Below the pieces are notes generated by a model that saw only the letters and a list, made by a program, of their open reading frames with translations, ran no database searches and was not told where the DNA came from. Both the position numbers and the translations under genes were made by a program. From assembly GCA_011364975.1 (NCBI GenBank), contig RDOE01000057.1, forward strand, positions 1 through 20,263: a DNA stretch of 20,263 nucleotides. The letters are read 5' to 3'. The stretch is from Promethearchaeota archaeon (GTDB lineage Archaea > Asgardarchaeota > Lokiarchaeia > Sigyniarchaeales > SOKP01). This document shows, one piece after another, positions 2,158 through 20,262 of this stretch; within the stretch, counting starts at the first letter, position 1, and each line of letters starts with the position of its first letter.

Positions 2158-3591
2158 TTATATTGCTTTTAAATACATAGTCGCCAGATTATCTAATTCC
2201 AGAGAGAGACCCGTTTCTATTGGTTTTAGGGGAGGAGTATTGATTAATTTAATTATTTCACTTCTTGCTCTTTTTCTAATTGATTTCGATCCTTGATTCT
2301 TCCAGCTATCCCTAGTTAACCTATCAATGATAGGACTTACTATAAAGAATTCTTTTCTAAATAACTTAAGCGTTGTAGAATGAGAAAGCAGTTCTTCTCT
2401 CTCCCCGTAATCCTTCAGAATGTTCATAGCAAAAGGCTCTCCATAATTCTTTATCCCACAAATGAGTCTTTTTACCATTCCTACAATTTCATTATCAATA
2501 ATTAATTTTTCAATGCTCTGGGTTGACTCAAAATCTAACATACCTGGTCCAGAGATCATATTAACACCCGCAAGACCTCCAAGTAAAGCACCCATACCTG
2601 CTTCTAAACCGGATTGAGCATCAGGAATTTTTGAATCACTTAAACTCATATAAGCATGAGTCGGTAGCTTTAAGAGTTTACCCATTTCAATGTCTCCTAA
2701 ATTAATCATCATAGTTTCGATAGCCCCCATGGGTGTTGTACCTTGTTTCATGTCCAATATTGAAGGGGAACCGCCCCATATTATTGGTGCTCCAGATCTT
2801 GCTAATTGAGTTATTACGACTCCAGCAAGAGATTCTGCACAATGTTGTGTAATAGATCCTATTAAACTGATTGGAGCACTTGCTCCTGCTAATGGCATAG
2901 ATACAAATTCGGAAGGGATCATGCTTTTAGCAGCATCAATAACAGATTGAGTAGTTAAATCTGACCATTTTAATGGCGGACTTGGACATGCGTCAAAAAT
3001 AGCAAGAGGTTTTTTGGCTAAATCATTTTCCGATAATCTACAAGTTAGTAAGAATTCTTTCATTATCGAAAAACTTTCTTTTCTGAATGTGCCTGTTATA
3101 ACCGGCTTATAACAATTTTTAAGCGCTAAGTAGAGTCTATGCCAATCCTGAGCCAATTTTGGCACATCCTGATATACAATTGCGGTACTTTGAGCTTCAA
3201 TATATTTTAAGTGTTCTGTTATTTTAGAAAACCTAACATAGTCATTAGATAATGGACTTCTAATCTCTCCAGAAGCCTCATCAAGATATAAAATTGCTGC
3301 TGAACCAGGGTCAAAGTGCACCTCATCTTTACTTAATGAAAGGTGTTCCTTTCCCTCCCTATCAAATAGTTTAATCTCGGAAGGAACTGTTTTTAATGCT
3401 TTTTCAACTAAATCACTTGGTATAAAGTATCGATTTTCATCATGATTTATACCTTCCTTTCCAAATAACTCTTTAGCCTCGTGATTTTCTATAAAAATAC
3501 CTAAGGTTTCGAGAATAGTTTTAGCTTCATTAAAAATCTTCTCTTTATGTTCTTCGTCTAAAATTTGTATTTTTGGTCTTAAAATTTCCAT
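2158..3591 (-). CDS. mttB: Trimethylamine methyltransferase (MttB/MtgB) superfamily protein, non-pyrrolysine
   Basis: Motifs SPPLKW, PLAGASAPISLIG, GAPIIWGG, DMKQG, SDSKIPDAQSGLE, GMLDFE and EKLIIDNEI. Leu (TTA, 2641-2643) sits at the position occupied by Pyl in methanogen MttB. The substrate cannot be determined from sequence. Confidence 0.9.
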   Translation of the reverse strand: MEILRPKIQILDEEHKEKIFNEAKTILETLGIFIENHEAKELFGKEGINHDENRYFIPSDLVEKALKTVPSEIKLFDREGKEHLSLSKDEVHFDPGSAAILYLDEASGEIRSPLSNDYVRFSKITEHLKYIEAQSTAIVYQDVPKLAQDWHRLYLALKNCYKPVITGTFRKESFSIMKEFLLTCRLSENDLAKKPLAIFDACPSPPLKWSDLTTQSVIDAAKSMIPSEFVSMPLAGASAPISLIGSITQHCAESLAGVVITQLARSGAPIIWGGSPSILDMKQGTTPMGAIETMMINLGDIEMGKLLKLPTHAYMSLSDSKIPDAQSGLEAGMGALLGGLAGVNMISGPGMLDFESTQSIEKLIIDNEIVGMVKRLICGIKNYGEPFAMNILKDYGEREELLSHSTTLKLFRKEFFIVSPIIDRLTRDSWKNQGSKSIRKRARSEIIKLINTPPLKPIETGLSLELDNLATMYLKAI

Positions 3592-3614
3592 CCTTTCTAC
3601 CTCATAACTTTTAA

Positions 3615-4502
3615 TTATCTTTTTAAAGAGGTTAACAACCTACGAATTTCTTTGATTGTTTCTGGAGATGTTCCACAACAACCGCCTACTATTTTTGCTC
3701 CCCATGATATCATTTCTTTAATATGCTTTACAAAATCAGCTATGGGTTGATCATAATGAACTATTTGATTTTCATCAAGTCTTGGCTTTCCCGCGTTAGG
3801 TTTCACAGAAAAGGGAAGATCAGTTAACTTTACCAACTCTTTCGCCAAATCTACCATTTCGTCAGAACCTATAGTACAGTTAGCACCAATTACACTAACA
3901 TTTGCTTCTTCTAATACATTTACGCATTTTTCTATTGAATGACCCATTATAGTATAATATCCTCTTTTTGTCTTTTTATACGTCATAGAACTAATTATTG
4001 GTTTTTTTGATACTTCTTGAATCGCCTTTATAGCAGCTAACATTTCATCTATGTCAGAGATAGTTTCTATATGCCAAAGATCTACTCCTAATTCAAGATA
4101 TTTTGCTTGTTCTTTATAGCTTGATTTCCAATCTTCAAATGTTGCCTTACCTACAGGAGGTTTAAATACTCCTGATGGACCGATATCACCTACTATCAAT
4201 TTATTAGGAAAACAAACGCCTTCAATGATTGCTAAAGCATTTTCATTTATTTCTTGAATTTTATTGTCAACTTTATAGTTTCTAAGATTTAATAAACTAG
4301 CACCAAAAGTGTTCGTTTGACACATATCTGCCCCTGCAGTGTAATAAGCGCGATGAATATCAGCAATTGTGTCAGGAGCCTCTAAATTAATGAGATCTGG
4401 AAGTTTTCCAGGTTTAATTCCACGCTTAAATATTTCAGTTCCCATTCCACCATCAAACAATATGATTTTAGAATCATCTTTTAACCAATCTTGAAAAATC
4501 AT
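3615..4502 (-). CDS. Homocysteine S-methyltransferase family protein (stand-alone MetH Hcy-binding domain, Bmt-like)
   Basis: Motifs FDGGMGT, IHRAYYTAGAD, TNTFGA, GDIGPSG, IETISD and PNAG, with Zn ligands in GANC and GGCCGT. Confidence 0.93.
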   Translation of the reverse strand: MIFQDWLKDDSKIILFDGGMGTEIFKRGIKPGKLPDLINLEAPDTIADIHRAYYTAGADMCQTNTFGASLLNLRNYKVDNKIQEINENALAIIEGVCFPNKLIVGDIGPSGVFKPPVGKATFEDWKSSYKEQAKYLELGVDLWHIETISDIDEMLAAIKAIQEVSKKPIISSMTYKKTKRGYYTIMGHSIEKCVNVLEEANVSVIGANCTIGSDEMVDLAKELVKLTDLPFSVKPNAGKPRLDENQIVHYDQPIADFVKHIKEMISWGAKIVGGCCGTSPETIKEIRRLLTSLKR

Positions 4503-4522
4503 CTTACATTCCTTAATTATTT

Positions 4523-5173
4523 TTATTTAGATAATAATTTCTTTACAAGTTTAATAGAGTCTATTGCATTTTCTGCATATCCATCAGCTTCGCATTCTTT
4601 TGTCCAAGCTTCAGTGACGGGAGCTCCTCCTAAGATAACCTTAAATTTATTCCGTATTCCTTGCTTTTTTAATAAACTAATAACTTTTTTTTGCCCGATC
4701 ATCGTTGTAGTTAATAAAGCAGAGATACCAATAATATCCGCTTCCTTCTCAATAGCAACATCTATTATTTTTTCTGCAGGAACATCCGCTCCTAAATCAT
4801 ATACTTCAAATCCATTAGCATTTAGCAAAGTAGCGACGATAGTTTTTCCGATGGAGTGAATATCTCCTTCGATGGTTGCAATAACAATAGATCCGGGGGA
4901 GTAACTTTTATTTTTAGATTTTAAATGAGGTAATAGTAACCCCATACATTCTTGCATTATATTCCCTCCCAACATTAGTTCTGGTAAAAAAATATCTCCA
5001 TCTTCCCATAAGTTCCCAATTCTGCGGATTCCCTCTCCAAATCCTCTTTCAATTACTTTAAGAAGGTCTAAACCCTCATTAATAGAACGAATTGCTAATT
5101 CTCTAGCTCTATCTTCATTCAATTCCACAATAGCTAAAGCAATTTGATTGTAAAAATCTTCCAATGACTCCAT
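4523..5173 (-). CDS. Methyltransferase cognate corrinoid protein (MttC/MtbC-like)
   Basis: N-terminal cap (IGNLWEDGDIFLPELM), B12-binding DxHxxG (GDIHSIGK), SALLTTT and GGAP..GADGY-like motifs. Confidence 0.93.
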   Translation of the reverse strand: MESLEDFYNQIALAIVELNEDRARELAIRSINEGLDLLKVIERGFGEGIRRIGNLWEDGDIFLPELMLGGNIMQECMGLLLPHLKSKNKSYSPGSIVIATIEGDIHSIGKTIVATLLNANGFEVYDLGADVPAEKIIDVAIEKEADIIGISALLTTTMIGQKKVISLLKKQGIRNKFKVILGGAPVTEAWTKECEADGYAENAIDSIKLVKKLLSK

Positions 5174-5388: not shown

Positions 5389-5877
5389 ATTCCAAGACGT
5401 TATTATGCTAAATCGAAGAAAACTTACGCCAAGGATCAATCCTTCACACAAGATCAAGTAGGAGAGGAAAAAGAGCGCTATCTAATTAGCATAGAGCTTA
5501 TGAGCTTGAAAACTCTTAAAGATTATGATATACTCGGTTGGCGAGGTGAGTTTTATTTCAAGTGTGATGGAGAAAAATTGTTTAAAGCTCGGTGGCCCAA
5601 TAAGGGAGTAATTAAATTACAAAGAAATCAAGAATTTACATCAAAAGCTGAAATGTCTCTTTGGACTCAATTCAAAACAGTTCGGGCTGATCAAAGCATT
5701 ATTTTACCTATCAAAGTCATTCTAAGAGAAAAAGATCCTCTTAAGAAAGATTTTACTGTTGCTGAGCAGGAATTTGAAATACGATTACCTCAACCTACTG
5801 AATATGTAATCCTTCAGGACGATAAAGAAAAAACAAAGGCCAAACTTCGAATTCAAGCCACAAGAACTAGGTATTAA
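5389..5877 (+). CDS. Hypothetical protein with a C2-domain-like beta-sandwich; probable start upstream of the ORF-track ATG at 5500
   Basis: The frame is open back to TAA at 5347. GGTGA at 5377-5381 lies 7 nt before an in-frame ATT at 5389. YLISIELMSLKTLKDYDILG..GEFYF and IKVILREKDPLKKDFTVA resemble C2 strands and loops. The CDS is solid; the start and fold are tentative. Confidence 0.65.
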   Translation: MPRRYYAKSKKTYAKDQSFTQDQVGEEKERYLISIELMSLKTLKDYDILGWRGEFYFKCDGEKLFKARWPNKGVIKLQRNQEFTSKAEMSLWTQFKTVRADQSIILPIKVILREKDPLKKDFTVAEQEFEIRLPQPTEYVILQDDKEKTKAKLRIQATRTRY

Positions 5878-6007: not shown

Positions 6008-6697
6008 CTATTCTTCTTGTTCTGGTCTAACTTTAAGAGTGTCAATAATTTTCAGAATATCTCCCGCGAGTTCATATCGTTGATCTCGATACTTTTCACG
6101 AGTTAAACGTTTCTCAATTTTTAATGGGGTACCAATGTTAACTCGAATTCCTCGTCCATCGAATAAATTCAGTATTCTCGCCTTTTCTGTAAAAATTGCC
6201 ATGGGAATAATAGGAGCTTCTCCAGCAACAGCAAATTTGATAATTCCCGCCATTGCTTTTACTTGGGTTTCTGGATCAAGTCTCGATTCTGGAGTCATTG
6301 CTACAAGATCCCCTACCTCATTTAAATATTTAAACACCATGTCAATAGGTTCCGTATCTTCTTTATCTATAGTACTTCGAAACATGCCTAAAGTCTTAAG
6401 AACTGGGCCATAAATTTGATGTTTCATTAGTTTATGATGAACCATAAAATGAATTCTTCGAGCCGAAACTTGACTAATTATTGCCATATCTCTTAATGCA
6501 TTATCGCTGATAGTAGTTAAAATAGCTTTACCGCGGATAGGAATATTTTCTTTACCCTCAATTTTCAAATCAGTAAGGTTTATTAAACCGAATCCACTAA
6601 ATCCTTTTACAGCAGCATAAAGAATATCTTCCATTAAATCCTTGCTAACTATTTTATCCTTTCCTTTCGTTTCTGGTTCTTGAGTAGTTTCTACCAA
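6008..6697 (-). CDS. PlsC/LPLAT-fold protein with degenerate catalytic motifs
   Basis: TTG start with AGGTGA 7 nt upstream. IEGKENIP, IHFM, APIIPMAI and IRVNIGTP match PlsC. The NHxSxxD position reads TTISDNALRD and the FPEGTRS position reads TPESRLD. Confidence 0.8.
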   Translation of the reverse strand: MVETTQEPETKGKDKIVSKDLMEDILYAAVKGFSGFGLINLTDLKIEGKENIPIRGKAILTTISDNALRDMAIISQVSARRIHFMVHHKLMKHQIYGPVLKTLGMFRSTIDKEDTEPIDMVFKYLNEVGDLVAMTPESRLDPETQVKAMAGIIKFAVAGEAPIIPMAIFTEKARILNLFDGRGIRVNIGTPLKIEKRLTREKYRDQRYELAGDILKIIDTLKVRPEQEE

Positions 6698-6753
6698 TCT
6701 TTTATCACCTTTTAATTTGGTTTTATTCTTTAAAGTAATTCTATATAACTCAT

Positions 6754-8415
6754 TTAGATGTCTGGAGTATCATAAAATAACAACTTTTTTAATTGAGCCA
6801 TCATATTATTAGTGAGACGTTTCAGTTCCTCATATTCTGGCATAGGCTTACCCCAATATTGTTTATGTTCCATGAAGGGGGGTCCTGCTTTGTATATCGT
6901 TCCTTTATAGAAATTTAGCATTTTCGCATGCTTTGGATATACTTTTTCGGTGCCAGTAATTCCAATTAGAAGTATAGGTACTTGTTTTTCAATAGCTAAT
7001 CGCATAGCTCCGGTATGACCTTCCAATAACTGACCATCTCCGAGGTTTGTGGTTCCTTCGGGATAAATCATAACAATTTGTCCTTTGTCAAGAAGATATT
7101 TAGCGTAGTTATATGAATCAACATCATGTTGCCCTCGCTTTAAAGGGAACGCGTGATGATTCCTAATCCATGCATTGACTATGGGTGGTTTAAATAATGT
7201 TTGTTTTGCCATTTGATAGATAACTCTCTTTCGATAATATATCATGGTTTGCGCAGTCATAATTACGTCCCATTCTGAATTATGATTAGTACATAAAACA
7301 GCAGCACCACTATCTGGAATATATTTATCGTAATCAATTACTTTAGAAGGTAGCATCAAATCACACCATTGTTGAACAAGCCAACCCGAAAAATTCTGCA
7401 CCGTTTCTTTAAATTTATCACCAACTCCTATATCTTCTAAAGCCTTAACAAATCCATACCATATGTCGTCAACTGTTTGTAAGATTGAAATTCCCTGATC
7501 TTTTAAGTATCGTTTGAAACTGAATTTCATCTTTTTTTCTATATCATCTGGACCTTCTTCAAGAAGTTGCTGTTCTGTTTTTCCGTAGGTACCATTTTTT
7601 AATTTAGTAATATCCTCCCTTAGTTCATCAGTCAGCCTTCGAACTTCATCATATGAGATGTTATTAATATCATAGTCGTGATAATACCTGGGATCTCCAA
7701 CTCTAACTAAAATTTGTGTAGGTTTCATGACTAATCTTCCTTTGGGAAGTGCATTTTGTGAACCAATTATTGCCATTGGCACGATTGGGCATCCCATTTC
7801 TATAGCAAGCCTTACAGCACCTGTTCTAAACTCCCCCAACTCTCCATCAGCACTGCGAGTTCCTTCTGGAAAAAGACCGACAACTTCACCTTCTCGAATT
7901 AATTGCCTTGCTCTTTCCCAACCGGCTTCTGGATTTTCTCGATCTACCTTAAATGCACCAAGATTAGTAAAAAGGGTTCGCACAATAGGAGTTTTAAAAT
8001 TCTCGAGTTTACTCATAAAGCGAATCCTTCGATGACACGCAGCACCCACGAGAAAAGGATCTATGTGTGATTGATGATTGCTAATCACAACTAAGGGACC
8101 GAACTCCGGAAACATATTCCTATTTGGGTATTCTGCCTTGAAGTTCCAAAGCGTTCGGACGAGTAACTTTACATAAAATGTAGCTGCCCACCATTGTAAT
8201 TTTCCTTCTAAATCCTCTAAATTGAGTTCACGAATAGCTTTACGGTACATGTCATTTAGTATATCTATCGGGTTGTATTTGAGCATTTTATACAAAACGC
8301 TCTGATGTGTCTTATCGTACTCGAGATCACCCTTAAGCTTTTCAGCTTCGGATTCAGAAAGCTGTTCGTAATCAATCTTTTGAGTGATTTGTATTTTATC
8401 CTCTTCAAGTTCCAT
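6754..8415 (-). CDS. plsC: Tandem two-domain 1-acyl-glycerol-phosphate acyltransferase (PlsC/LPLAT family)
   Basis: Domain 1 has NHQSHID, FMSK, GAFKVDR, FPEGTRS and PIVP. Domain 2 has NHNSEWD, MAK, AFPLKRG, YPEGTT and VPIL. Confidence 0.92.
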   Translation of the reverse strand: MELEEDKIQITQKIDYEQLSESEAEKLKGDLEYDKTHQSVLYKMLKYNPIDILNDMYRKAIRELNLEDLEGKLQWWAATFYVKLLVRTLWNFKAEYPNRNMFPEFGPLVVISNHQSHIDPFLVGAACHRRIRFMSKLENFKTPIVRTLFTNLGAFKVDRENPEAGWERARQLIREGEVVGLFPEGTRSADGELGEFRTGAVRLAIEMGCPIVPMAIIGSQNALPKGRLVMKPTQILVRVGDPRYYHDYDINNISYDEVRRLTDELREDITKLKNGTYGKTEQQLLEEGPDDIEKKMKFSFKRYLKDQGISILQTVDDIWYGFVKALEDIGVGDKFKETVQNFSGWLVQQWCDLMLPSKVIDYDKYIPDSGAAVLCTNHNSEWDVIMTAQTMIYYRKRVIYQMAKQTLFKPPIVNAWIRNHHAFPLKRGQHDVDSYNYAKYLLDKGQIVMIYPEGTTNLGDGQLLEGHTGAMRLAIEKQVPILLIGITGTEKVYPKHAKMLNFYKGTIYKAGPPFMEHKQYWGKPMPEYEELKRLTNNMMAQLKKLLFYDTPDI

Positions 8416-8428
8416 AATAATTCATCCT

Positions 8429-9214
8429 CTACGGATTAATTTTTATACTTTTTTGATTTTTTGAATTAGTTATATTTTTGTTTTCTATTAAATTGATTAA
8501 TTCTTGGAAAGAATCGATTAATAAAGATGGCTTAGCTTCAAAAAGGATTTCTCGATTGCTTACCCCACTAGCAATTGCAATAGTCCAAACTCCAGCTTCG
8601 TTTCCTGCGATAATATCGGAAGGCATATCTCCTATCATTACAAATTCACTAAGTTTACATGATTTGTACGATTTAAAAACAATAGATAAGGAATTAGGGT
8701 CTGGCTTAAGAGCTGGAATCAGATCTGCTCCATAAATGCCCTTGAAAAAGCTTTTAACTCTTTGCTCTTCTAAATGAGGTAAAATATTTTTTGTTTGGTT
8801 ATGCGAAACTATAAAAAAATCGAAATTTTTTTTGTACTTTTTAATAAATTCATAAGCATCAGGATAAAAGGGAGCATCTTTTGCATAAGTTAAATATTTT
8901 GAAAAGATCTTAATCGCAATTCGTAATTTCTTAAGATACGTGATATTTTGTAAAGATGAAATATATTTGAACATTTCATAGGACTCTAATAGTATCTTAG
9001 GTAATGGATAGCTTTGGATTGTCTCCATAAGAGCTCCTATTTCTTGGATTGTAATATCAGTATCCGCAATTATCTTTTTTTCTTGATACACCTCTTCTAC
9101 AGAATTACGTAGAGATTCTCTGATATCTAATATTGTTCCATCGAAATCAAATATAATTCCACGTATATTTCCATTTTGAAGCTGTTTTATTAATTGATTG
9201 TTCTCAAGCGTCAT
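8429..9214 (-). CDS. HAD-superfamily phosphatase (subfamily IA, Gph/PpaX-like)
   Basis: Motif I FDFDGT, motif II IVSHN, motif III KPDP and motif IV GDMPSD..AG..AG. A 13-nt gap to the acyltransferase suggests an operon. Confidence 0.9.
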   Translation of the reverse strand: MTLENNQLIKQLQNGNIRGIIFDFDGTILDIRESLRNSVEEVYQEKKIIADTDITIQEIGALMETIQSYPLPKILLESYEMFKYISSLQNITYLKKLRIAIKIFSKYLTYAKDAPFYPDAYEFIKKYKKNFDFFIVSHNQTKNILPHLEEQRVKSFFKGIYGADLIPALKPDPNSLSIVFKSYKSCKLSEFVMIGDMPSDIIAGNEAGVWTIAIASGVSNREILFEAKPSLLIDSFQELINLIENKNITNSKNQKSIKINP

Positions 9215-9338
9215 TATTAATGTCGTAAAAATATAACTTCTCTCAACTAAAGTTGAATTATCTTTACTTAAGTTTCTGTTTATTTAAAAAATTAATCTTT
9301 AAAATAATACGCTAATAAGTATGAAATAAAACTGAACT

Positions 9339-10850: not shown

Positions 10851-11258
10851 ATGAATAGTGAAAGTGCGAATAACATTAAGCAAGGATCTTTTGCGGCTTC
10901 AATTGCAGAGTTATATGAACCTTTAAATGCTAATCTTAAATTTAAAGAAAAATTTAAGGATGATGTATTTAAAATTTTACTGAATCCTAAGGATGGAGAA
11001 ACTGCAGCATTAATTCAAGTCGATAGAGGTTCATTAACTGTCAAGAGTATAGATAATTCAAATAAGAAAAATATTGACCAAAAAACACTTGATTGGGACG
11101 CATTAATGCAAACAACGATTGAAATTTTTAGCGATATAGGCTCTGGTAAGCTTTCTAGCAGTGAAATTGTGAAAAAAGTAGTTACTCGAAAAATTAAAGT
11201 AAAAAATCCTAACTTTTTAACAAAATTAACTGAAATGGGTAATTTGTTAAGAGAATAG
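10851..11258 (+). CDS. SCP2 sterol/lipid-carrier-like domain protein
   Basis: ALIQVDRGSLTV and DALMQTTIEIFSDIGSGKLS...RKIKVKN match the SCP2 pattern (D.tl...f..i..Gkl.......gklkv.G). Confidence 0.7.
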   Translation: MNSESANNIKQGSFAASIAELYEPLNANLKFKEKFKDDVFKILLNPKDGETAALIQVDRGSLTVKSIDNSNKKNIDQKTLDWDALMQTTIEIFSDIGSGKLSSSEIVKKVVTRKIKVKNPNFLTKLTEMGNLLRE

Positions 11259-11499: not shown

Positions 11500-12699
11500 A
11501 TGTTAATGAAACAAAATAAGTTTAAAACATTTCCGATACATATCTTAGCGTTTTTGCGAGTTGCTATTGGAGTTGCCATAGGATTAGCTAATCCGTTATA
11601 TTTCGTTAAAGAGAATTTAGATCCGAATCTTATCGGTATAATAACTTCTGGAACTGCTATGGCTTATCTGTTTTCTCCTTTTATTTTCAGAAATATTCAT
11701 AAAAAGATAGGAATAAAGGCAACGGTCATTATTGCTTCGATTGGGTTTTTAGCGATTCAAGTAGTTCTACAAATTACCAAACATCCCCTTATTGTATATC
11801 TTTTATTAATTCTTGATGGAGTGTTTTTAGGGCTATTTTGGCCTGTCCTAATGGCTGCTATATCAAACATTTCTAACCGAGATGAATACAAGGACAATGA
11901 TCGATTGAAAGACAAATTAATGAAAACCTATAGTTTATCATGGAATTTAGGTGGTATCTTTTGTTATTTATTAGGTGCAGGGATCCTCTTTTTAATTGAG
12001 GAAATTGAATTAATGTATATTTTTGCCCTAATTTTTGCTGTAATAGGATTCCTCATTTCATTATTTATTCAAGAACCATCAATTCAGTTTGATAAAAAAA
12101 TTATTATTCCGATTGATGAAAGAATCAAAGCTTTACCAAAAAGAGAACAAATTCAATTTCCCCTCTTTATACCGCTTTTTATGATAATAATCTATGGGTT
12201 TTTAATTGGGGGCGTAGGGTTAATATATCCTATCAAATCTGAATTATTAGTTTTTCCACTATTCTCAAATTATCTATTTTTCTTTTTTAGAATGATAACA
12301 CAAACTATTATTATCTCGAAATCCATGGATTTTTCGATTAAAATTATAAAACGCCTTATGCCGATTTCCAATTTAGTGGTTGTAATTACATTATTGATGA
12401 TGGGACTAAATCAAAACATTGTTCTTTTTGGCGTTTTATTTGGTTTATTTGGGATTTTCAACTCATTATATTATACATTGGCATTCAAGCTTTTAGTGTT
12501 CCGCAATATTGCAGAAAATACATCAAAATATAGTATATATTTTGAAACAATGATAGGAATAGGTTTTTTCTTTTCACCAATAATCACAGGTATTATTGCT
12601 ACGAATGATGTTAATATATCATTTTACTTGTTAACATTGATATCTTTTATAGGACTTATATTCTTCCTCGTATTAAATAAGAAAATAAAAAGTGAATAA
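11500..12699 (+). CDS. MFS transporter (divergent)
   Basis: About 12 TM segments in a 6+6 arrangement with a central hydrophilic loop. Contains DGVFLGLFWP, YSLSWNLG and GIGFFFSPII. Confidence 0.85.
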   Translation: MLMKQNKFKTFPIHILAFLRVAIGVAIGLANPLYFVKENLDPNLIGIITSGTAMAYLFSPFIFRNIHKKIGIKATVIIASIGFLAIQVVLQITKHPLIVYLLLILDGVFLGLFWPVLMAAISNISNRDEYKDNDRLKDKLMKTYSLSWNLGGIFCYLLGAGILFLIEEIELMYIFALIFAVIGFLISLFIQEPSIQFDKKIIIPIDERIKALPKREQIQFPLFIPLFMIIIYGFLIGGVGLIYPIKSELLVFPLFSNYLFFFFRMITQTIIISKSMDFSIKIIKRLMPISNLVVVITLLMMGLNQNIVLFGVLFGLFGIFNSLYYTLAFKLLVFRNIAENTSKYSIYFETMIGIGFFFSPIITGIIATNDVNISFYLLTLISFIGLIFFLVLNKKIKSE

Positions 12700-12769
12700 T
12701 TGATTTTTCAATAATTTAAAATTATCCTAGATATTTTATATTGCAAATTAATACCAATCACATCTTTAC

Positions 12770-14176
12770 ATGAAAAAAAACAATTCCATAGGCTATAATC
12801 GGATATTTTGGCCAGTTTATTTTTTAAATGGATTCCAAAGTATCGCTTGGGGCGGAATTATTTTCTTAATTGTTCCATTATCAAGATTAATGTGGCCGAA
12901 TGAGCCTTCACATGCATTAGAAATGGGAATTTTAATAACAGCTCTTTCTTGGTCTGCCTCTATTTCTGGACTAGTTTTCGGACACTTTATTGATAAATAT
13001 TCGCGAAAGATGATTATAACAATAATATCAATATTCCGGGGATTAGCTATAATAATGTTGGGATTCGCTTTAGAAGGTGGTGGTTTTACAACTTGGATTT
13101 ATTTTTTAATCTTTGTAAGTCTATTTGGAAGTTTTGCAGGATTGAGTTGGCCAACGGTAATTTCATTATCAAATGATATTGTTCCAAAGGAGTCTCGCTC
13201 GCGTTTTTTTGGTATTTATGAAATCATTAGGTCAATAACCCAGATTCTTGGATTTTTAATTGGGGCTCTTTTGGTGCAAATTGGATTTTGGAGGCAGTAC
13301 TTTTGGGGAACTGGAATTGGTATACTCGTGTTTGGGTTTATCTTCTTTATAAATACTGATGATCCAAAAAGAGGTGCACAACAGGAAGAATTAATGGATA
13401 TTCTCAATCAAAATGATATTGATTATGACTTTCAAATTAATCGTGAGACATTGAAACATACAATGTTAAGTAAAACAAATATTGTTGCTTTAATCGAAGG
13501 TATATTTACTTGGATTCTAATGGGCTCAATAAATTTTCTAATATTAAATTTAATCCAAAATGCCCCTCATAATATCTCAGAATTTTCAACCAGTGTATTT
13601 ATGATTACCTTTGGTTTAACGGGGGGTTTAGTAGGGCAACTAGCGCTTGCTAGATTGAGTGATAAATTAGCTAAAAAACATCCTACTGTAAGGATACCTA
13701 TAATTATTATTGCAATATTAGGAGGGATAATAACATTTGCTCTATTTTTCTTCATTCCATGGCCATATTTAACAGTCGAACAAGGAAAAGATGTAGGCTA
13801 CTTAATGACACTGCCTACAATTTGGCTTATGGGTATTATGTTCTTTTTCTCAAGGTCTATTTTCTCACTGTATATCGTCAATCAAAGCCCAGTTTTACAA
13901 GAAATAAATCTACCAGAAGCCCAAGGAAAAATAGTGTCTTGGAATCAATTCTTAGAAAATTTAGGTAGGGGAATAGGTCCATCATTAAGTGGCTTACTTT
14001 TAGTAGTTACTAACCTGAATTATCAGCTAACTATTTTATTTTTAACATTATGTATCCTTCCAGGAGTAATTTTATGGTTGTTAGCAATTAATTGGTATCC
14101 AAAAGACACTTTTAGAATTAGGAATATACTTTCTGAAAGGGCAGAAATTTTGAAATCTAGAACCGATGGTTTCTAA
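12770..14176 (+). CDS. MFS transporter with Spinster-like features
   Basis: Motif A GHFIDKYSRK, SNDIVPKESRSRFFG, WRQYF, DPKRGAQ after TM6, RLSDKL, and PEAQG..GRGIGP. Confidence 0.9.
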   Translation: MKKNNSIGYNRIFWPVYFLNGFQSIAWGGIIFLIVPLSRLMWPNEPSHALEMGILITALSWSASISGLVFGHFIDKYSRKMIITIISIFRGLAIIMLGFALEGGGFTTWIYFLIFVSLFGSFAGLSWPTVISLSNDIVPKESRSRFFGIYEIIRSITQILGFLIGALLVQIGFWRQYFWGTGIGILVFGFIFFINTDDPKRGAQQEELMDILNQNDIDYDFQINRETLKHTMLSKTNIVALIEGIFTWILMGSINFLILNLIQNAPHNISEFSTSVFMITFGLTGGLVGQLALARLSDKLAKKHPTVRIPIIIIAILGGIITFALFFFIPWPYLTVEQGKDVGYLMTLPTIWLMGIMFFFSRSIFSLYIVNQSPVLQEINLPEAQGKIVSWNQFLENLGRGIGPSLSGLLLVVTNLNYQLTILFLTLCILPGVILWLLAINWYPKDTFRIRNILSERAEILKSRTDGF

Positions 14177-14888: not shown

Positions 14889-17249
14889 TTAAATTATGCA
14901 ATGTTCAGTTCGTCTTATTATTTCATCTTGTAAATCCTTCCCTAAATTATTGAAATAATCACTGTAACCTGCCACTCGTACTATTAAATTTTGATACTGT
15001 TCTGGATGGAGTTGGGCATCACGTAAGGTACTTGCTGATACTACATTAAATTGAATGTGATGACCATCCATTTTAAAGTATGAGCGAATTAGATGAGTCA
15101 AATTATCAATCCCTTCTTGAGTGGAAAAAAATTTTGGTGAAAATTTTTGATTTAATAATGTGCCACCAGTACGTAGATGATCTATTTTACCTGCTGATTT
15201 GATAACTGCGGTAGGGCCCTTGATATCCATTCCTTGAACGGGAGAGATTCCTTCTGACAATGGACTAAATGCTTTTCTCCCATCGGGGGTAGCTCCAGTT
15301 ACCTTACCAAAATACACATGAACAGTAGTTGGTAAGAGATTAATCCGATGCAATCCACCTCTTGTGTTAGGGCGTCCATTTATCGCATCATGGACAATAT
15401 CAAAAACTTGTTGGGTTATTGAGTCCGCATAATCGTCATCATTACCATATTTAGGAGTTTTATTAAGTAATTTTTGCCTTAATTCTTCGTATCCATTGAA
15501 ATCATTCTTTAAAGCATGTAAAATTGTATTCATAGAATAAAGCGCTTTATCATATACATTATATTTTAAGGAAGTTAAACAATCTGTAATACTTCCCATT
15601 CCTACGATCTGAATATATGATGTATTATATTTTGCTCCTCCATCATTATAATCTTTTGCTTTCTCAATACAATTATCAATTATAATAGATAAAAAAGGAC
15701 TAGGGTTTTCTGCCCATATTCGTTCGATAATCTGATTTCCTTTTATTTTAATATTAACGAAATAATTGATTTGTTTTTGGAAAGCATCCATAAGTTCTGA
15801 GAAATTCTTAAAATTCGAGGGATCCTCAGTTGATAACCCTATTTGTTTTCTCGTTAAAGGATCCATTCCCTTATTAAGCGTAATTTCAAGAATTTTTACT
15901 AAATTAAAATATCCCGTTAAAATGTATGCCTCTTTACCAAAAGCTCCCGCTTCAACACATCCACTTGCTCCGGCATTTCTTGCATCAATTAATGATTTCC
16001 CTTGCCGTGTAAGTTCTTGAATAATCGCATCAGCATTAAAAATTGATGGTTGTCCAAAACCTGTTTTTATAATTTCAATAGCACGTTTTAAAAATTCATT
16101 AGGAGTTATTTTACTTAATTGTACATTACTACTTGGTTGGACTATGCGCATCTCTTCAATAACATCCAATATCACATAGGATAATTCGTTTACCCCATCA
16201 GTTCCATCTTGCTTTAATCCTCCAAGATTAATATTGCAAAAATCAGTATAAGTACCACTCTCCTCAGCAGTTACTCCCACTTTTGGAGGAGCTGGTTGAT
16301 TATTGAACTTAATCCAAAATGCTTGAAGTAATTCGATTGCCTCATCTCTTGTTAATACTCCATTTGAGATATCCTCTTTATAGAATGGATATAAATGTTG
16401 ATCAAGACGACCAGGATTGAATGAATCCCAGGTATTATATTCGGTTATAACTCCAAGATGGATAAACCAATAATGTTGTAATGCCTCCCAAAACGTTCTG
16501 GGAGCATTAGCAGGGACATAATAACAAATCGCAGCAATTTTTTCTAATTCTCTCTTCCTTTGAGGGTCTTTTTCAATTTTAGCTTGTTCATGGGCAAAAT
16601 CTGCATACCTTTTAGCATACGTTATAATAGCACCAGCAGCAATTTCCATGGCTCTTAATTGTTCTCTTTTAATGAAAGCATCAGGATCGTTATAGAAATC
16701 TAATTTATCTATTGAATCTTTAATTAATCTCTTAAAATCTATAAATCCCATTTTCCAAATATTTACTCCAGCAACAGTATGTCCAGGAGCTCTCTGTTCC
16801 ATGAACTCAGTAAATATTCCTGCTTCATATGCATCAATCCACTCTTGATCTACCTGAGAAAAAATTTTTTCCCTTATAGTTTTGCCTTTCCAGAAAGGAA
16901 TAATAATTTCTTGAGATTGTTTCTTAGTTTGTTCCTTAACTTTATAAGAAATTTTCTCCCGAGAATTTAATATATCCAGATCTTCCAACGTATGACAACA
17001 GACTTCCGGATAGGTAGGGGTAGCTTTTGGTTCTGGCCCTCTCTCACCAACTATCAATTCTCCCTCATCAATAGAAATTTTTTTATTTTCTAAGATATAT
17101 TGAAAAACTTTAGCTCTAGTTACAGCAGGAGAATACTTCTGGGCTGCCCCCTCCTTATAAAAATCTGTAATCAATAAAGCACGTTCTAATGAAAGATGTG
17201 GAACTGATTTAAGACTCTGAGATCTCAATTTTGCTATTCTTTCATTCAT
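14889..17249 (-). CDS. hypD: Glycyl radical enzyme, trans-4-hydroxy-L-proline dehydratase (HypD/PflD) type
   Basis: Gly-radical loop RVAGY and Cys loop SGCVE. HypD-type segments include PTYPEVCCH, FTEFMEQRAPGH, WDSFNPGRLDQ, NNQPAPPKVG, ESGTYTDF, LTGY and LLPTT. Confidence 0.88.
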   Translation of the reverse strand: MNERIAKLRSQSLKSVPHLSLERALLITDFYKEGAAQKYSPAVTRAKVFQYILENKKISIDEGELIVGERGPEPKATPTYPEVCCHTLEDLDILNSREKISYKVKEQTKKQSQEIIIPFWKGKTIREKIFSQVDQEWIDAYEAGIFTEFMEQRAPGHTVAGVNIWKMGFIDFKRLIKDSIDKLDFYNDPDAFIKREQLRAMEIAAGAIITYAKRYADFAHEQAKIEKDPQRKRELEKIAAICYYVPANAPRTFWEALQHYWFIHLGVITEYNTWDSFNPGRLDQHLYPFYKEDISNGVLTRDEAIELLQAFWIKFNNQPAPPKVGVTAEESGTYTDFCNINLGGLKQDGTDGVNELSYVILDVIEEMRIVQPSSNVQLSKITPNEFLKRAIEIIKTGFGQPSIFNADAIIQELTRQGKSLIDARNAGASGCVEAGAFGKEAYILTGYFNLVKILEITLNKGMDPLTRKQIGLSTEDPSNFKNFSELMDAFQKQINYFVNIKIKGNQIIERIWAENPSPFLSIIIDNCIEKAKDYNDGGAKYNTSYIQIVGMGSITDCLTSLKYNVYDKALYSMNTILHALKNDFNGYEELRQKLLNKTPKYGNDDDYADSITQQVFDIVHDAINGRPNTRGGLHRINLLPTTVHVYFGKVTGATPDGRKAFSPLSEGISPVQGMDIKGPTAVIKSAGKIDHLRTGGTLLNQKFSPKFFSTQEGIDNLTHLIRSYFKMDGHHIQFNVVSASTLRDAQLHPEQYQNLIVRVAGYSDYFNNLGKDLQDEIIRRTEHCII

Positions 17250-18663: not shown

Positions 18664-20262
18664 CTATTTTTCCTCTTTGTCTCGGATAACTCTCCTTAAA
18701 ATTTTGCCGACAGCAGATTTTGGTAGACTTCTTACGAATTTTACTATTCTAGGGTACTTATAGGCGGCCATATTTTCTTTAGCCCAATTGATAATATCTT
18801 CTTCGGTTACCTTTTCTTTATATTCTGGCTTTAGGATTATATGAGCAATAATCTCTTCACCTTTAATTGGATCACTAACACCTATTACTGCACATTCCAA
18901 AACAGCAGGATGTTCATAAAGAATTTCTTCTATCTCTCTTGGATATACTGAATGTCCCTTATACTTAATCATATCTTTAACCCTGTCCAAAAGGAAGATA
19001 TAGCCTTCTTCATCTACTTTAGCATAATCACCGGTTCTTAGCCACCGCATCCCTCCAGTCTCAAAAAGTACCTTCTTGTTTTCTTCTTCCCTATTATGAT
19101 AACCTAACATTACTTGTGGTGCTGAAACAACTAATTCGCCAGCTTCCCCTATAGGCAAGAATTCTAAATTATCATTTACGATTGCAACATAAGTATTTGC
19201 AACAGGGTGTCCACAACTTCCTAATTTTTGCTTAGACCAAGGAGGAGCACTAGTTACACCGGTACTAGTCTCGCTTAGTCCGTATCCTTCCGCCATAGGA
19301 AAGCCCGTCCTTTTCTGCCATTCTCTAGCAACTTCCGCAGGTAATGCACCAGCTCCTACATTTGCATACTTTAAGCAAGTCATATCAACTTCTGTTAAGT
19401 GAGGTGAATTTAACATATTAATAAACATAGTAGGTACACCTAACACTAAATTCGGACGATATTGCTTAATTACTTCTGCAATTCTCTGCAAATCGAATGT
19501 TGGAATCAAGATACCTCTCCCTCCTGCAGTACAATTTGCAATGAGTTCACATGCTTGACCATATATATGATACCATGGTAGAATCGAGAGTGTGATAAGG
19601 TCTCCTTTAATATAATTTTCCTTCATATAATCTGTAATTTGTTTTATCTCTAGAGTCATGGATACCACATTATAATGCGATAAACATGCACCTTTGGGTA
19701 AACCTGTAGTACCACCAGTATATTGTATTATAGCTATATCTTCTTTAGGATTTATACTTATATCTATATCTTCTAATGGTGTTGGATGATTTTCCATAAT
19801 TGAATTATAATGTTTAACGATATTATCTTCTGGAATCTCTGGGATTTTACCTTCAATATTGATAATAATTACATTTTTTAAATCAAGATTTTTTTCAGCT
19901 CGTTTATACTCCTTAAAAAATCGGTCTAATAATATTACGACTTTTGCGCCTGAATCTTTCACTTGATATTCAAATTCTCTTGAAACGAAGAGTGGACTTA
20001 TTGCAGTTAGGGTTGCTCCGATTAAAATGGTGGCAAAATAACTAATAGCAAATTGTGGGCAATTCGGCAACCAGAGAGCTATAACATCTCCTTTTTTTAT
20101 ACCTAAATCTAATAATCCCGCAGCAAATCTTCTCGTGAGTATATCCAGGGCATTAAACGTATATTCTCTCCCATAAAAGTCAAGTGAGACCTTATCTTTG
20201 AACTTTTTCGCTCCATTTTTAAAAATATCAATCAAAGTTATGTTTTCAGGGATTTCTAATTC
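18664..20262 (-). CDS. fadD: Long-chain-fatty-acid--CoA ligase (FadD/LcfB-like); 5' end probably beyond the window
   Basis: Motifs YTGGTTGLPKG, LPWYHIYG, GYGLSE, RTGD, DRVKDMI and PKSAVGKILRR. The frame stays open past TTG at 20235 to the window edge (ELEIPENITLIDIF). Confidence 0.92.
   Translation of the reverse strand, partial: ELEIPENITLIDIFKNGAKKFKDKVSLDFYGREYTFNALDILTRRFAAGLLDLGIKKGDVIALWLPNCPQFAISYFATILIGATLTAISPLFVSREFEYQVKDSGAKVVILLDRFFKEYKRAEKNLDLKNVIIINIEGKIPEIPEDNIVKHYNSIMENHPTPLEDIDISINPKEDIAIIQYTGGTTGLPKGACLSHYNVVSMTLEIKQITDYMKENYIKGDLITLSILPWYHIYGQACELIANCTAGGRGILIPTFDLQRIAEVIKQYRPNLVLGVPTMFINMLNSPHLTEVDMTCLKYANVGAGALPAEVAREWQKRTGFPMAEGYGLSETSTGVTSAPPWSKQKLGSCGHPVANTYVAIVNDNLEFLPIGEAGELVVSAPQVMLGYHNREEENKKVLFETGGMRWLRTGDYAKVDEEGYIFLLDRVKDMIKYKGHSVYPREIEEILYEHPAVLECAVIGVSDPIKGEEIIAHIILKPEYKEKVTEEDIINWAKENMAAYKYPRIVKFVRSLPKSAVGKILRRVIRDKEEK

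Follow-up and report, generated by a model that had tools for sequence, protein, structure and literature searches.

Introduction

Acyltransferases of the PF01553 family are found in several described architectures. These include T. maritima PlsC (PDB entry 5KYM); the Aas-type acyl-[ACP]--phospholipid O-acyltransferases (NF006386; ACP, acyl carrier protein), which carry a fused acyl-ACP synthetase domain; and plant GPAT4/6/8 and the actinobacterial HAD–PlsC fusions, in which a HAD phosphatase precedes the PF01553 acyltransferase that accompanies it. The locus analyzed here combines such domains in another arrangement. It lies in a 20,263-nucleotide stretch of DNA from a Promethearchaeota archaeon (GenBank assembly GCA_011364975.1, contig RDOE01000057.1; hereafter the window) and consists of three genes that encode a HAD phosphatase, a fused double PlsC, and a third PlsC paralogue without the catalytic histidine (PlsC3). 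In related Promethearchaeota, three further genes, here called X, Y, and Z, stand between the double PlsC and PlsC3.

The comparison with each of these systems shows both likeness and difference. The double PlsC belongs to the same Pfam family as T. maritima PlsC, and its N-terminal domain shares the NHQSxxD and FPEGTRS motifs. Unlike that enzyme, it holds two catalytic domains in one chain, with a third, His-less copy encoded separately; its C-terminal domain has a threonine in place of the motif III arginine; and its archaeal host has no ACP match. In contrast to the Aas type, no acyl-ACP synthetase domain is fused to the acyltransferase, and the scores against that family fall far under its cut-off. 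In contrast to the plant and actinobacterial proteins, phosphatase and acyltransferase are separate genes 13 nucleotides apart, and the phosphatase is a HAD-IA member without an equivalog assignment; no HAD–PlsC fusion was seen in any locus.

X, Y, and Z call for comparison with a different set of enzymes. According to Sahonero-Canavesi et al. (2022), the glycerol ester reductase (Ger) is marked by the Pfam set PF01869, PF09989, and PF06050, converts sn-1 esters to alkyl ethers when expressed in E. coli, and has homologues in Lokiarchaeota. The same three families, found in Ger (Tmari_0479) and PlsA/PlsR, are present in the relatives' genes between the double PlsC and PlsC3. Unlike Ger and PlsA/PlsR, the archaeal counterpart is distributed over three genes that stand within an acyltransferase–phosphatase operon, and the window's genome lacks X and Y and has only distant Z paralogues on other contigs. 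For the PlsY and PlsC homologues of Lokiarchaeia, a 2022 review states that their function remains to be elucidated.

The initial annotation of this DNA knew of no characterized operon with this architecture. The novelty that this implies is narrowed by the PlsC and Ger homologues of Lokiarchaeota that are already in print. On the other hand, full-text searches found no paper on the operon, the fused double PlsC, PlsC3, or the reductase-minus form, although supplements such as the 2022 Science Advances Ger lists may name the genes. We propose that the three genes encode an acyl-CoA-dependent glycerolipid acyltransferase–phosphatase assembly, the acylation half of a six-gene cluster, which here would make esters only. 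We regard this proposal as an evenly balanced call.

Results

Two PlsC Domains in One Chain Retain the HX4D Dyad

The double PlsC matches PF01553 with 188.4 bits (cut-off 23) and exceeds the curated cut-off of the NCBIfam domain model for 1-acylglycerol-3-phosphate acyltransferase, TIGR00530, with 162.4 bits against 102.95. Residue conservation was assessed across 53 distinct orthologues from the fetched loci. The HX4D motif is present in both domains and invariant in all 53, as are E184, T186, R187, and P210–I211 of the N-terminal domain and P452–T455 of the C-terminal domain. At position 456 of the latter, where the canonical EGTR motif has its arginine, 52 orthologues carry threonine and one carries serine. 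Motif III reads PEGTR in the N-terminal domain, PEGTT in the C-terminal domain, and TPE(S/A)K in PlsC3; in PlsC and GPAT enzymes, the arginine of this motif contacts the acceptor phosphate. The N-terminal domain aligns to T. maritima PlsC 5KYM with an E-value of 9.3e-18. On the best reading of these motifs, both PlsC sites of the 553-residue protein are predicted to be active.

At E <= 0.001, 316 homologues of the double PlsC were found, the best 120 of which are 56–98% identical to it. Every organism label given for them is Asgard (Promethearchaeota, Lokiarchaeota, and others), except for one marine sediment metagenome. These labels, those of the loci, and the phylum survey described below place the window among Asgard archaea.

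The product of the first gene matches HAD_2 with 83.1 bits (cut-off 23.8). The motif I aspartate pair (FDFDGT), the motif II serine, the motif III lysine, and the GDxxxD of motif IV are kept across 44 orthologues. It stays under every NCBIfam equivalog cut-off (phosphoglycolate phosphatase, PpaX, and others; best scores 78.5 against 218 and 76.3 against 225), and a sequence search of the PDB yielded nothing more specific than generic HAD entries, none stronger than E 2e-8, from which a substrate is not readable.

Layout of the Three-Gene Unit

The coordinates of the three genes are given in Table 1. They agree with the initial annotation, which had reported three co-oriented genes on the minus strand with gaps of 13 and 56 nucleotides. 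Its count of three PlsC-fold domains and one HAD phosphatase is likewise borne out, all Pfam matches lying above their cut-offs. Across the 3.74-Mb assembly, which consists of 200 contigs at an estimated completeness of 99.25%, PF01553 matches these three domains and no others. The arrangement fits one translationally coupled unit, because the gaps are short and each holds a Shine-Dalgarno-like motif, 7–12 nucleotides ahead of the next start codon. The window has a GC content of about 0.25–0.37. A transmembrane helix is not evident, since in each of the three proteins the mean Kyte-Doolittle value over 19 residues never exceeds 1.6.

Table 1. Coordinates of the acyltransferase–phosphatase unit, numbered from the first letter of the window (aa, amino acids).
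Feature	Position	Strand	Details
HAD-IA type phosphatase, first gene of unit	8429..9214	-	261 aa; PF13419 HAD_2, 3.5e-23
Gap from HAD stop to double-PlsC start, 13 nt	8416..8428	-	GAGG Shine-Dalgarno-like motif
Fused double PlsC, two PF01553 domains predicted catalytic	6754..8415	-	553 aa; PF01553 5.5e-56, 2 stretches
N-terminal PlsC domain core: HX4D (H114/D119), PEGTR, PIVP	7768..8130	-	PF01553 search
C-terminal PlsC domain core: HX4D (H378/D383), motif III PEGTT	6964..7326	-	PF01553 search
Gap before PlsC3, 56 nt	6698..6753	-	AGGTGA Shine-Dalgarno-like motif; X-Y-Z place in relatives
PlsC3, His-less PlsC-fold paralogue	6008..6697	-	229 aa, TTG start; PF01553 3.7e-7

A Six-Gene Cluster in Related Promethearchaeota

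In related Promethearchaeota, the genes are ordered HAD–double PlsC–X–Y–Z–PlsC3. Synteny was counted in 44 loci retrieved with the double PlsC, together with their 5-kb flanks. A HAD gene lies upstream of the double PlsC within 400 nucleotides in 32 loci and elsewhere in the 5-kb flank in 7 (absent in 3, not assessable in 2), and X, of 350–365 residues, follows the double PlsC within 500 nucleotides in 39 (near in 1, absent in 2, not assessable in 2). X, Y, Z, and PlsC3 are all found in half of the loci with at least 4.5 kb downstream (10/20), and the same six-gene order recurs in six further genomes from five genera (L057, L058, L062–L065). The expectation that the gene order of the trio would be conserved therefore stood for the pairing of HAD and double PlsC but not for the compact trio, which is derived; PlsC3 normally follows Z.

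Across the phylum, 138 of 400 genomes match the double PlsC at E <= 1e-20. Within the window's own family it is present in 111 of 134 genomes; PlsC3 was found in 113 and X in 107 of the same 134. The other families of the order mostly have two or three separate single-domain PlsC matches, and the remaining 55 genera contribute 3 matching genomes out of 239. Two closed genomes from another family of the order (L072, L073) show the order PlsC–PlsC–X–Y–Z. Their second separate PlsC gene (L072:8882-9691, L073:6244-7035) has neither an HX4D nor an HX4E motif, and only one PlsC copy may be catalytic in these two loci. In a genome of a third family, f7, one gene encodes an 876-residue protein with three PF01553 stretches, and after it come a LarA-like gene, one with a HAD domain, X, and Y. 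Within the window's genus, four loci contain a second paralogous reductase-like set inside the cluster (L070:9781-19335, L071:6207-11001, L080:50-3713, L081:11269-15409), made up of an 837-residue FAD_binding_4 + DUF2229 + HGD-D protein together with a second copy each of Z and Y; only in L070 is this joined by a 977-residue protein (BcrAD_BadFG twice plus DUF2229) and a 469-residue protein of no family.

X and Y carry DUF2229 (PF09989) and the end of HGD-D (PF06050), the DUF2229 match in X reaching 2e-45. Z is a BcrAD_BadFG ATPase (PF01869) and passes the acyl-CoA dehydratase activase model. The long relatives of X, bacterial proteins some 1400 residues in length, combine PF01869 and PF09989 with or without PF06050, at 25–31% identity. 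A role of the locus in lipid metabolism gains support from this split Ger/PlsA-like module between the double PlsC and PlsC3.

The same families allow a reading outside lipid metabolism, in which the PlsC-fold proteins acylate a soluble phosphorylated metabolite, X, Y, and Z form a fermentation enzyme of the 2-hydroxyacyl-CoA dehydratase type, and the substrate of the HAD is a soluble intermediate. 2-Hydroxyacyl-CoA dehydratases and their activases belong to HGD-D and BcrAD_BadFG, a LarA-like gene is part of the cluster in f7, and the HAD resembles a small-molecule phosphatase. The strength of the DUF2229 match in X and the Ger-type architecture of its long relatives argue against it, as does the score of the double PlsC above the TIGR00530 cut-off, and we give this reading little credence.

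The Ger/PlsA-Like Module Has Been Deleted in the Window's Lineage

Between the double PlsC and PlsC3, the 56 nucleotides of the window compare with about 3.8 kb, occupied by X–Y–Z, in relatives (L004, L012, L015, L028, and others). PF09989 has no match in the window's genome, X and Y have no tblastn match in it, and Z is represented there only by two BcrAD_BadFG paralogues, 31–36% identical and on other contigs. A Ger-type set of components beside the acyltransferases was found in the relatives but not in the window's genome.

A quick IQ-TREE phylogeny with SH-aLRT (Shimodaira–Hasegawa-like approximate likelihood ratio test) support places L004, which has the full six genes, as sister to the window locus (74–75% identical, SH-aLRT 99); no other locus in the tree is closer. 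X is also missing beside the double PlsC in a separate clade within the genus (L033, L066, L067, L068; support 100). Three genomes of that clade (G254, G267, G270) encode the double PlsC and PlsC3 with no X at E <= 1e-25, and G267 and G270 are rated 100% complete; another genome, G271 (L033/L069), has kept X and Y 7.5 kb away. The presence or absence of X beside the double PlsC needs at least three state changes on the tree, and the flanking genes are intact in each case. At the place of X–Y–Z, the loci of the separate clade hold an open reading frame (ORF) of about 200 residues with a match to Toxin-deaminase (PF14424; L066:6066-6680, L033:6822-7367, also L067 and L068).

We rejected misassembly as the reason for the lack of X–Y–Z, because a DNA contig of run X11 spans 6423–7006 and bridges the double PlsC/PlsC3 junction, and because L033 and L066–L068 share the compact layout, with the ORF of about 200 residues in between. 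The trio in its compact form is genuine and derived by deletion, with intact flanking genes, because its sister L004 has six genes, X and Y are missing from the window's genome, and the junction is bridged.

The deletion raises the question of whether the trio is a functionless relic that has merely not yet decayed after the loss of X, Y, and Z. Apart from the loss itself, the toxin-deaminase-like ORF at the former X–Y–Z place in the separate clade would be in keeping with such decay. All three frames are intact, however, with every catalytic residue kept; at three or more separate points of the tree X is missing next to the double PlsC, each time without damage to the flanking genes; PlsC3 is still 73–82% identical to its orthologues of the genus; and the Shine-Dalgarno-like motifs persist. 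A relic is thus extremely improbable.

PlsC3 Is a Probable Pseudo-Enzyme Predicted to Bind the Double PlsC

PlsC3 matches PF01553 weakly but above threshold (30.5 bits, cut-off 23) and stays under the TIGR00530 cut-off (37.1 against 102.95 bits). In 25 distinct orthologues, the position of the catalytic histidine is occupied by D, K, N, E, or P and never by histidine; the window protein has an aspartate. The claim that the third PlsC is dead is in this respect confirmed. The orthologues keep an aspartate five residues beyond the histidine position and the blocks GMFRST, MTPE(S/A)K, and APIIP. An AlphaFold2 model of PlsC3 (24-row alignment) has a predicted local distance difference test score (pLDDT) of 78.4, and its best PDB match is 5KYM (E 3.2e-7, TM 0.56–0.60), followed by LpxM, PatA, and GPAT. 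The combination of a PlsC fold with the loss of the canonical base makes PlsC3 a probable pseudo-enzyme, in which substrate binding may persist. Catalysis by PlsC3 with the aspartate as base is unlikely, as the position varies among orthologues. Homologues of PlsC3 number 321 and bear the same kind of labels as those of the double PlsC, except for one bacterium-named metagenome-assembled genome and one subsurface metagenome.

Two lines of evidence connect PlsC3 with the double PlsC. The third domain of the 876-residue triple-PlsC protein of family f7 has PlsC3 as its best match (32% identity, 2e-23), and this fusion therefore ties PlsC3 to the other two PlsC domains. In addition, models of the double PlsC–PlsC3 complex, built from self-made alignments of 33 and 24 rows, gave ipSAE (interaction prediction score from aligned errors) values of 0.71, 0.71, and 0.72 in three runs compared to 0.00, 0.00, and 0.01 for controls, as judged by a mark that 58 of 80 solved complexes and 2 of 110 mismatched pairs reach and that is only rough for self-made alignments. 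The partner pLDDT is 80–81, and at least 90% of the contacts agree between runs. The predicted interface involves residues 351–358, 487–488, 499–507, and 547–553 on the side of the C-terminal PlsC domain and residues 21–32, 53–57, 78–81, 130, 162, and 191 of PlsC3, where 11 of 18 interface residues are conserved at 90% or more.

Acyl Donor, Acceptors, and the Metabolic Context

The window's genome has no match to an ACP-type PP-binding domain, to PlsX, or to CTP_transf_1. Acyl-CoA is the probable donor, because neither an ACP-type PP-binding domain nor PlsX was found. A route to phospholipids through cytidine diphosphate–diacylglycerol (CDP-DAG) is unlikely in the absence of CTP_transf_1, which in turn makes a role of the phosphatase in the production of neutral acylglycerols plausible. 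An AMP-binding ligase gene is located within the window at 18664–20235. Elsewhere in the genome, three tandem PlsY-like genes of about 400 codons each are found on one contig (G000:C176:1356-6401; 1356–2579, 2880–4085, and 5178–6401). The two of their products that were scanned have PF02660 in the first half and a C-terminal extension of about 200 residues. These three genes could supply the first acylation or compete for it.

The same genome content would suit an assembly devoted to scavenging or remodelling, which would re-acylate lysophospholipids or glycerol derivatives from bacterial partners in a Lands-cycle-like manner, using activated exogenous fatty acids, instead of making lipids de novo. 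The missing ACP and PlsX and the AMP-binding ligase gene would agree with this, and the Aas type (NF006386) is the second-best NCBIfam match of both PlsC proteins, far under its cut-off of 1221 bits (double PlsC, 3.1e-33, 114.6 bits; PlsC3, 4.9e-7, 27.8 bits). The conserved cluster includes no uptake or lysophospholipase gene, however, and it is hard to see what a phosphatase would do in a cycle of re-acylation. Two MFS (major facilitator superfamily) transporter genes are present in the window at 11500–14176, though they may not be syntenic with the cluster. We consider scavenging unlikely.

With respect to the acceptor, an alternative is that the PlsC domains acylate geranylgeranylglyceryl phosphate or other ether lysolipids of archaea while the HAD trims phosphate, which would give mixed ether–ester lipids on the archaeal backbone. 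The genome encodes a canonical GGGPS and has no CTP_transf_1 match. The idea is in print for Lokiarchaeota (Villanueva 2017, as quoted in a citing paper), and either stereoisomer of glycerol phosphate is a substrate of bacterial PlsY and PlsC according to the title of a 2026 EMBO Rep paper and, for PlsY, its Discussion. Yet two catalytic sites are kept in 53 of 53 orthologues, whereas a mono-ether lysolipid leaves a single hydroxyl free. What is conserved beside the acyltransferase in relatives is a Ger/PlsA-like module, with sn-1 acyl esters as its known substrates, and there is no prenyltransferase gene in the cluster. Hybrid lipids are in our estimate an improbable product.

Neighboring Genes in the Window

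Two small plus-strand ORFs flank the unit. The one at 10851–11258 encodes 135 residues, and at 51–53% identity it is found upstream of the HAD gene in L022, L028, L032, and L042. In a comparison of protein-atlas features, an SCP-2 sterol-transfer cluster stands at rank 7 for this protein (score 0.92, 182 shared, PF02036 on 46% of members), and a small lipid-carrier protein near the operon is possible; its AlphaFold2 model (pLDDT 55.5, 5-row alignment) is too poor to bear on the idea. The ORF at 5500–5877, of 125 residues, is arranged tail-to-tail with PlsC3 and recurs beside PlsC3 at 65–90% identity in many loci, including L058, L059, L061, L063, L065–L067, and L069–L071. Neither ORF has a Pfam or NCBIfam match at E <= 0.01, and a laxer Pfam threshold gave nothing better than E 0.06.

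The minus-strand stretches 2158–5173 and 14889–17249 hold genes of a methyl-transfer set, a glycyl-radical enzyme, and a small GTPase. The methyl-transfer set, just downstream of the unit, comprises an MttB-family methyltransferase, an S-methyltransferase, and a B12-binding protein, and a B12-binding gene is also located downstream of PlsC3 in L066, L067, L071, L080, and L081. The glycyl-radical enzyme (pyruvate formate-lyase-like, 786 residues) and the Ras-family small GTPase are encoded further on.

Discussion

Based on these data, the observations of the initial annotation are upheld, and its interpretation as an ester-lipid synthesis or remodelling system is supported in part only; the acceptor (G3P, G1P, LPA, or an ether lysolipid), the target of the HAD, and a MAG/DAG or hybrid ether–ester product are no more than candidates. 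For the proposed glycerolipid acyltransferase–phosphatase assembly, the data establish domain content, conservation of catalytic residues, synteny, the loss of X and Y, and the f7 fusion, and provide a controlled complex model; donor and acceptors of the acyl groups, the sequence of reactions, their products, and a possible part in membranes are inferred as follows. The assembly would be cytoplasmic or peripheral to the membrane. Its N-terminal PlsC site, with the full canonical motifs, would most likely acylate glycerol phosphate or an acceptor of the lysophosphatidate type. The C-terminal site may take a different, possibly dephosphorylated acceptor; its missing motif III arginine would fit acylation after dephosphorylation. 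PlsC3, a subunit without catalysis of its own, would most likely dock on the C-terminal domain and there bind substrate or serve as a scaffold, and the HAD-IA enzyme would remove phosphate from a precursor, an intermediate, or the product. A bolder and purely speculative side idea is that the HAD acts as a phosphomutase that converts glycerol-1-phosphate to glycerol-3-phosphate. X, Y, and Z would constitute a split, ATP-driven ester-to-ether reductase of the Ger/PlsA type. Because this half of the cluster is deleted, the window's organism would stop at fatty-acyl esters, while its relatives could proceed to 1-alkyl or alkenyl ethers.

Several points weigh against this proposal. The phosphatase is a generic IA member to which NCBIfam and the PDB assign no lipid phosphatase family, and HAD-IA enzymes usually act on small soluble phosphates. 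Of the dehydrogenase families that might provide G1P or G3P, Fe-ADH_2 and NAD_Gly3P_dh_N have only weak matches in the genome, of 22–36 bits and in proteins of other sizes, which say little either way. The predicted interface with PlsC3 is conserved at 90% or more in only 5 of 20 residues on the double-PlsC side. PlsC3 may moreover partner the reductase rather than, or besides, the double PlsC, because it directly follows Z in nearly all genomes and because neither a double PlsC nor X was found in at least four genomes of the family: G201, G203, and G204 carry Y–Z–PlsC3, and G188 carries a Z fragment with PlsC3. Four RNA-library contigs (two libraries from one study) cover the double PlsC at 6749–7002 and the HAD gene at 8531–8848, 8804–9031, and 9013–9242. 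They are a weak hint of expression, as DNA carry-over is possible; run X2 gave no contig, and stretches outside the RNA-library contigs are uninformative.

The literature adds two further objections. A membrane role of archaeal PlsC and PlsY was judged unlikely by Coleman et al. (2019), and only isoprenoid lipids are reported for the sole cultured Lokiarchaeon analyzed. According to a 2026 paper, the method used on that organism might have missed ester lipids.

A more far-reaching model covers the family as a whole and is put forward tentatively, as a possibility that we hold to be doubtful. Lokiarchaeia of this family would build fatty-acid glycerolipids by a heteromeric machine composed of two catalytic PlsC domains, a pseudo-PlsC, and a HAD phosphatase. 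This machine would use acyl-CoA without ACP, bypass CDP-DAG, and yield neutral acylglycerols; with the split Ger-like reductase it would yield 1-alkyl ethers, and the window's genome would be a natural reductase-minus form that makes esters only.

The capacity of Asgard archaea to make fatty-acyl lipids bears on how eukaryotes acquired membranes of the bacterial type. The present analysis turns scattered homologues into a defined, expressible set of genes, with which the open question of Asgard lipids becomes testable, and the matched reductase-plus and reductase-minus versions within one genus offer a natural comparison for assays of lipid products in a heterologous host. If the more far-reaching model is true, archaea closely related to eukaryotes would possess, beside their isoprenoid ethers, a functional and modular route to lipids of the bacterial or eukaryotic type.

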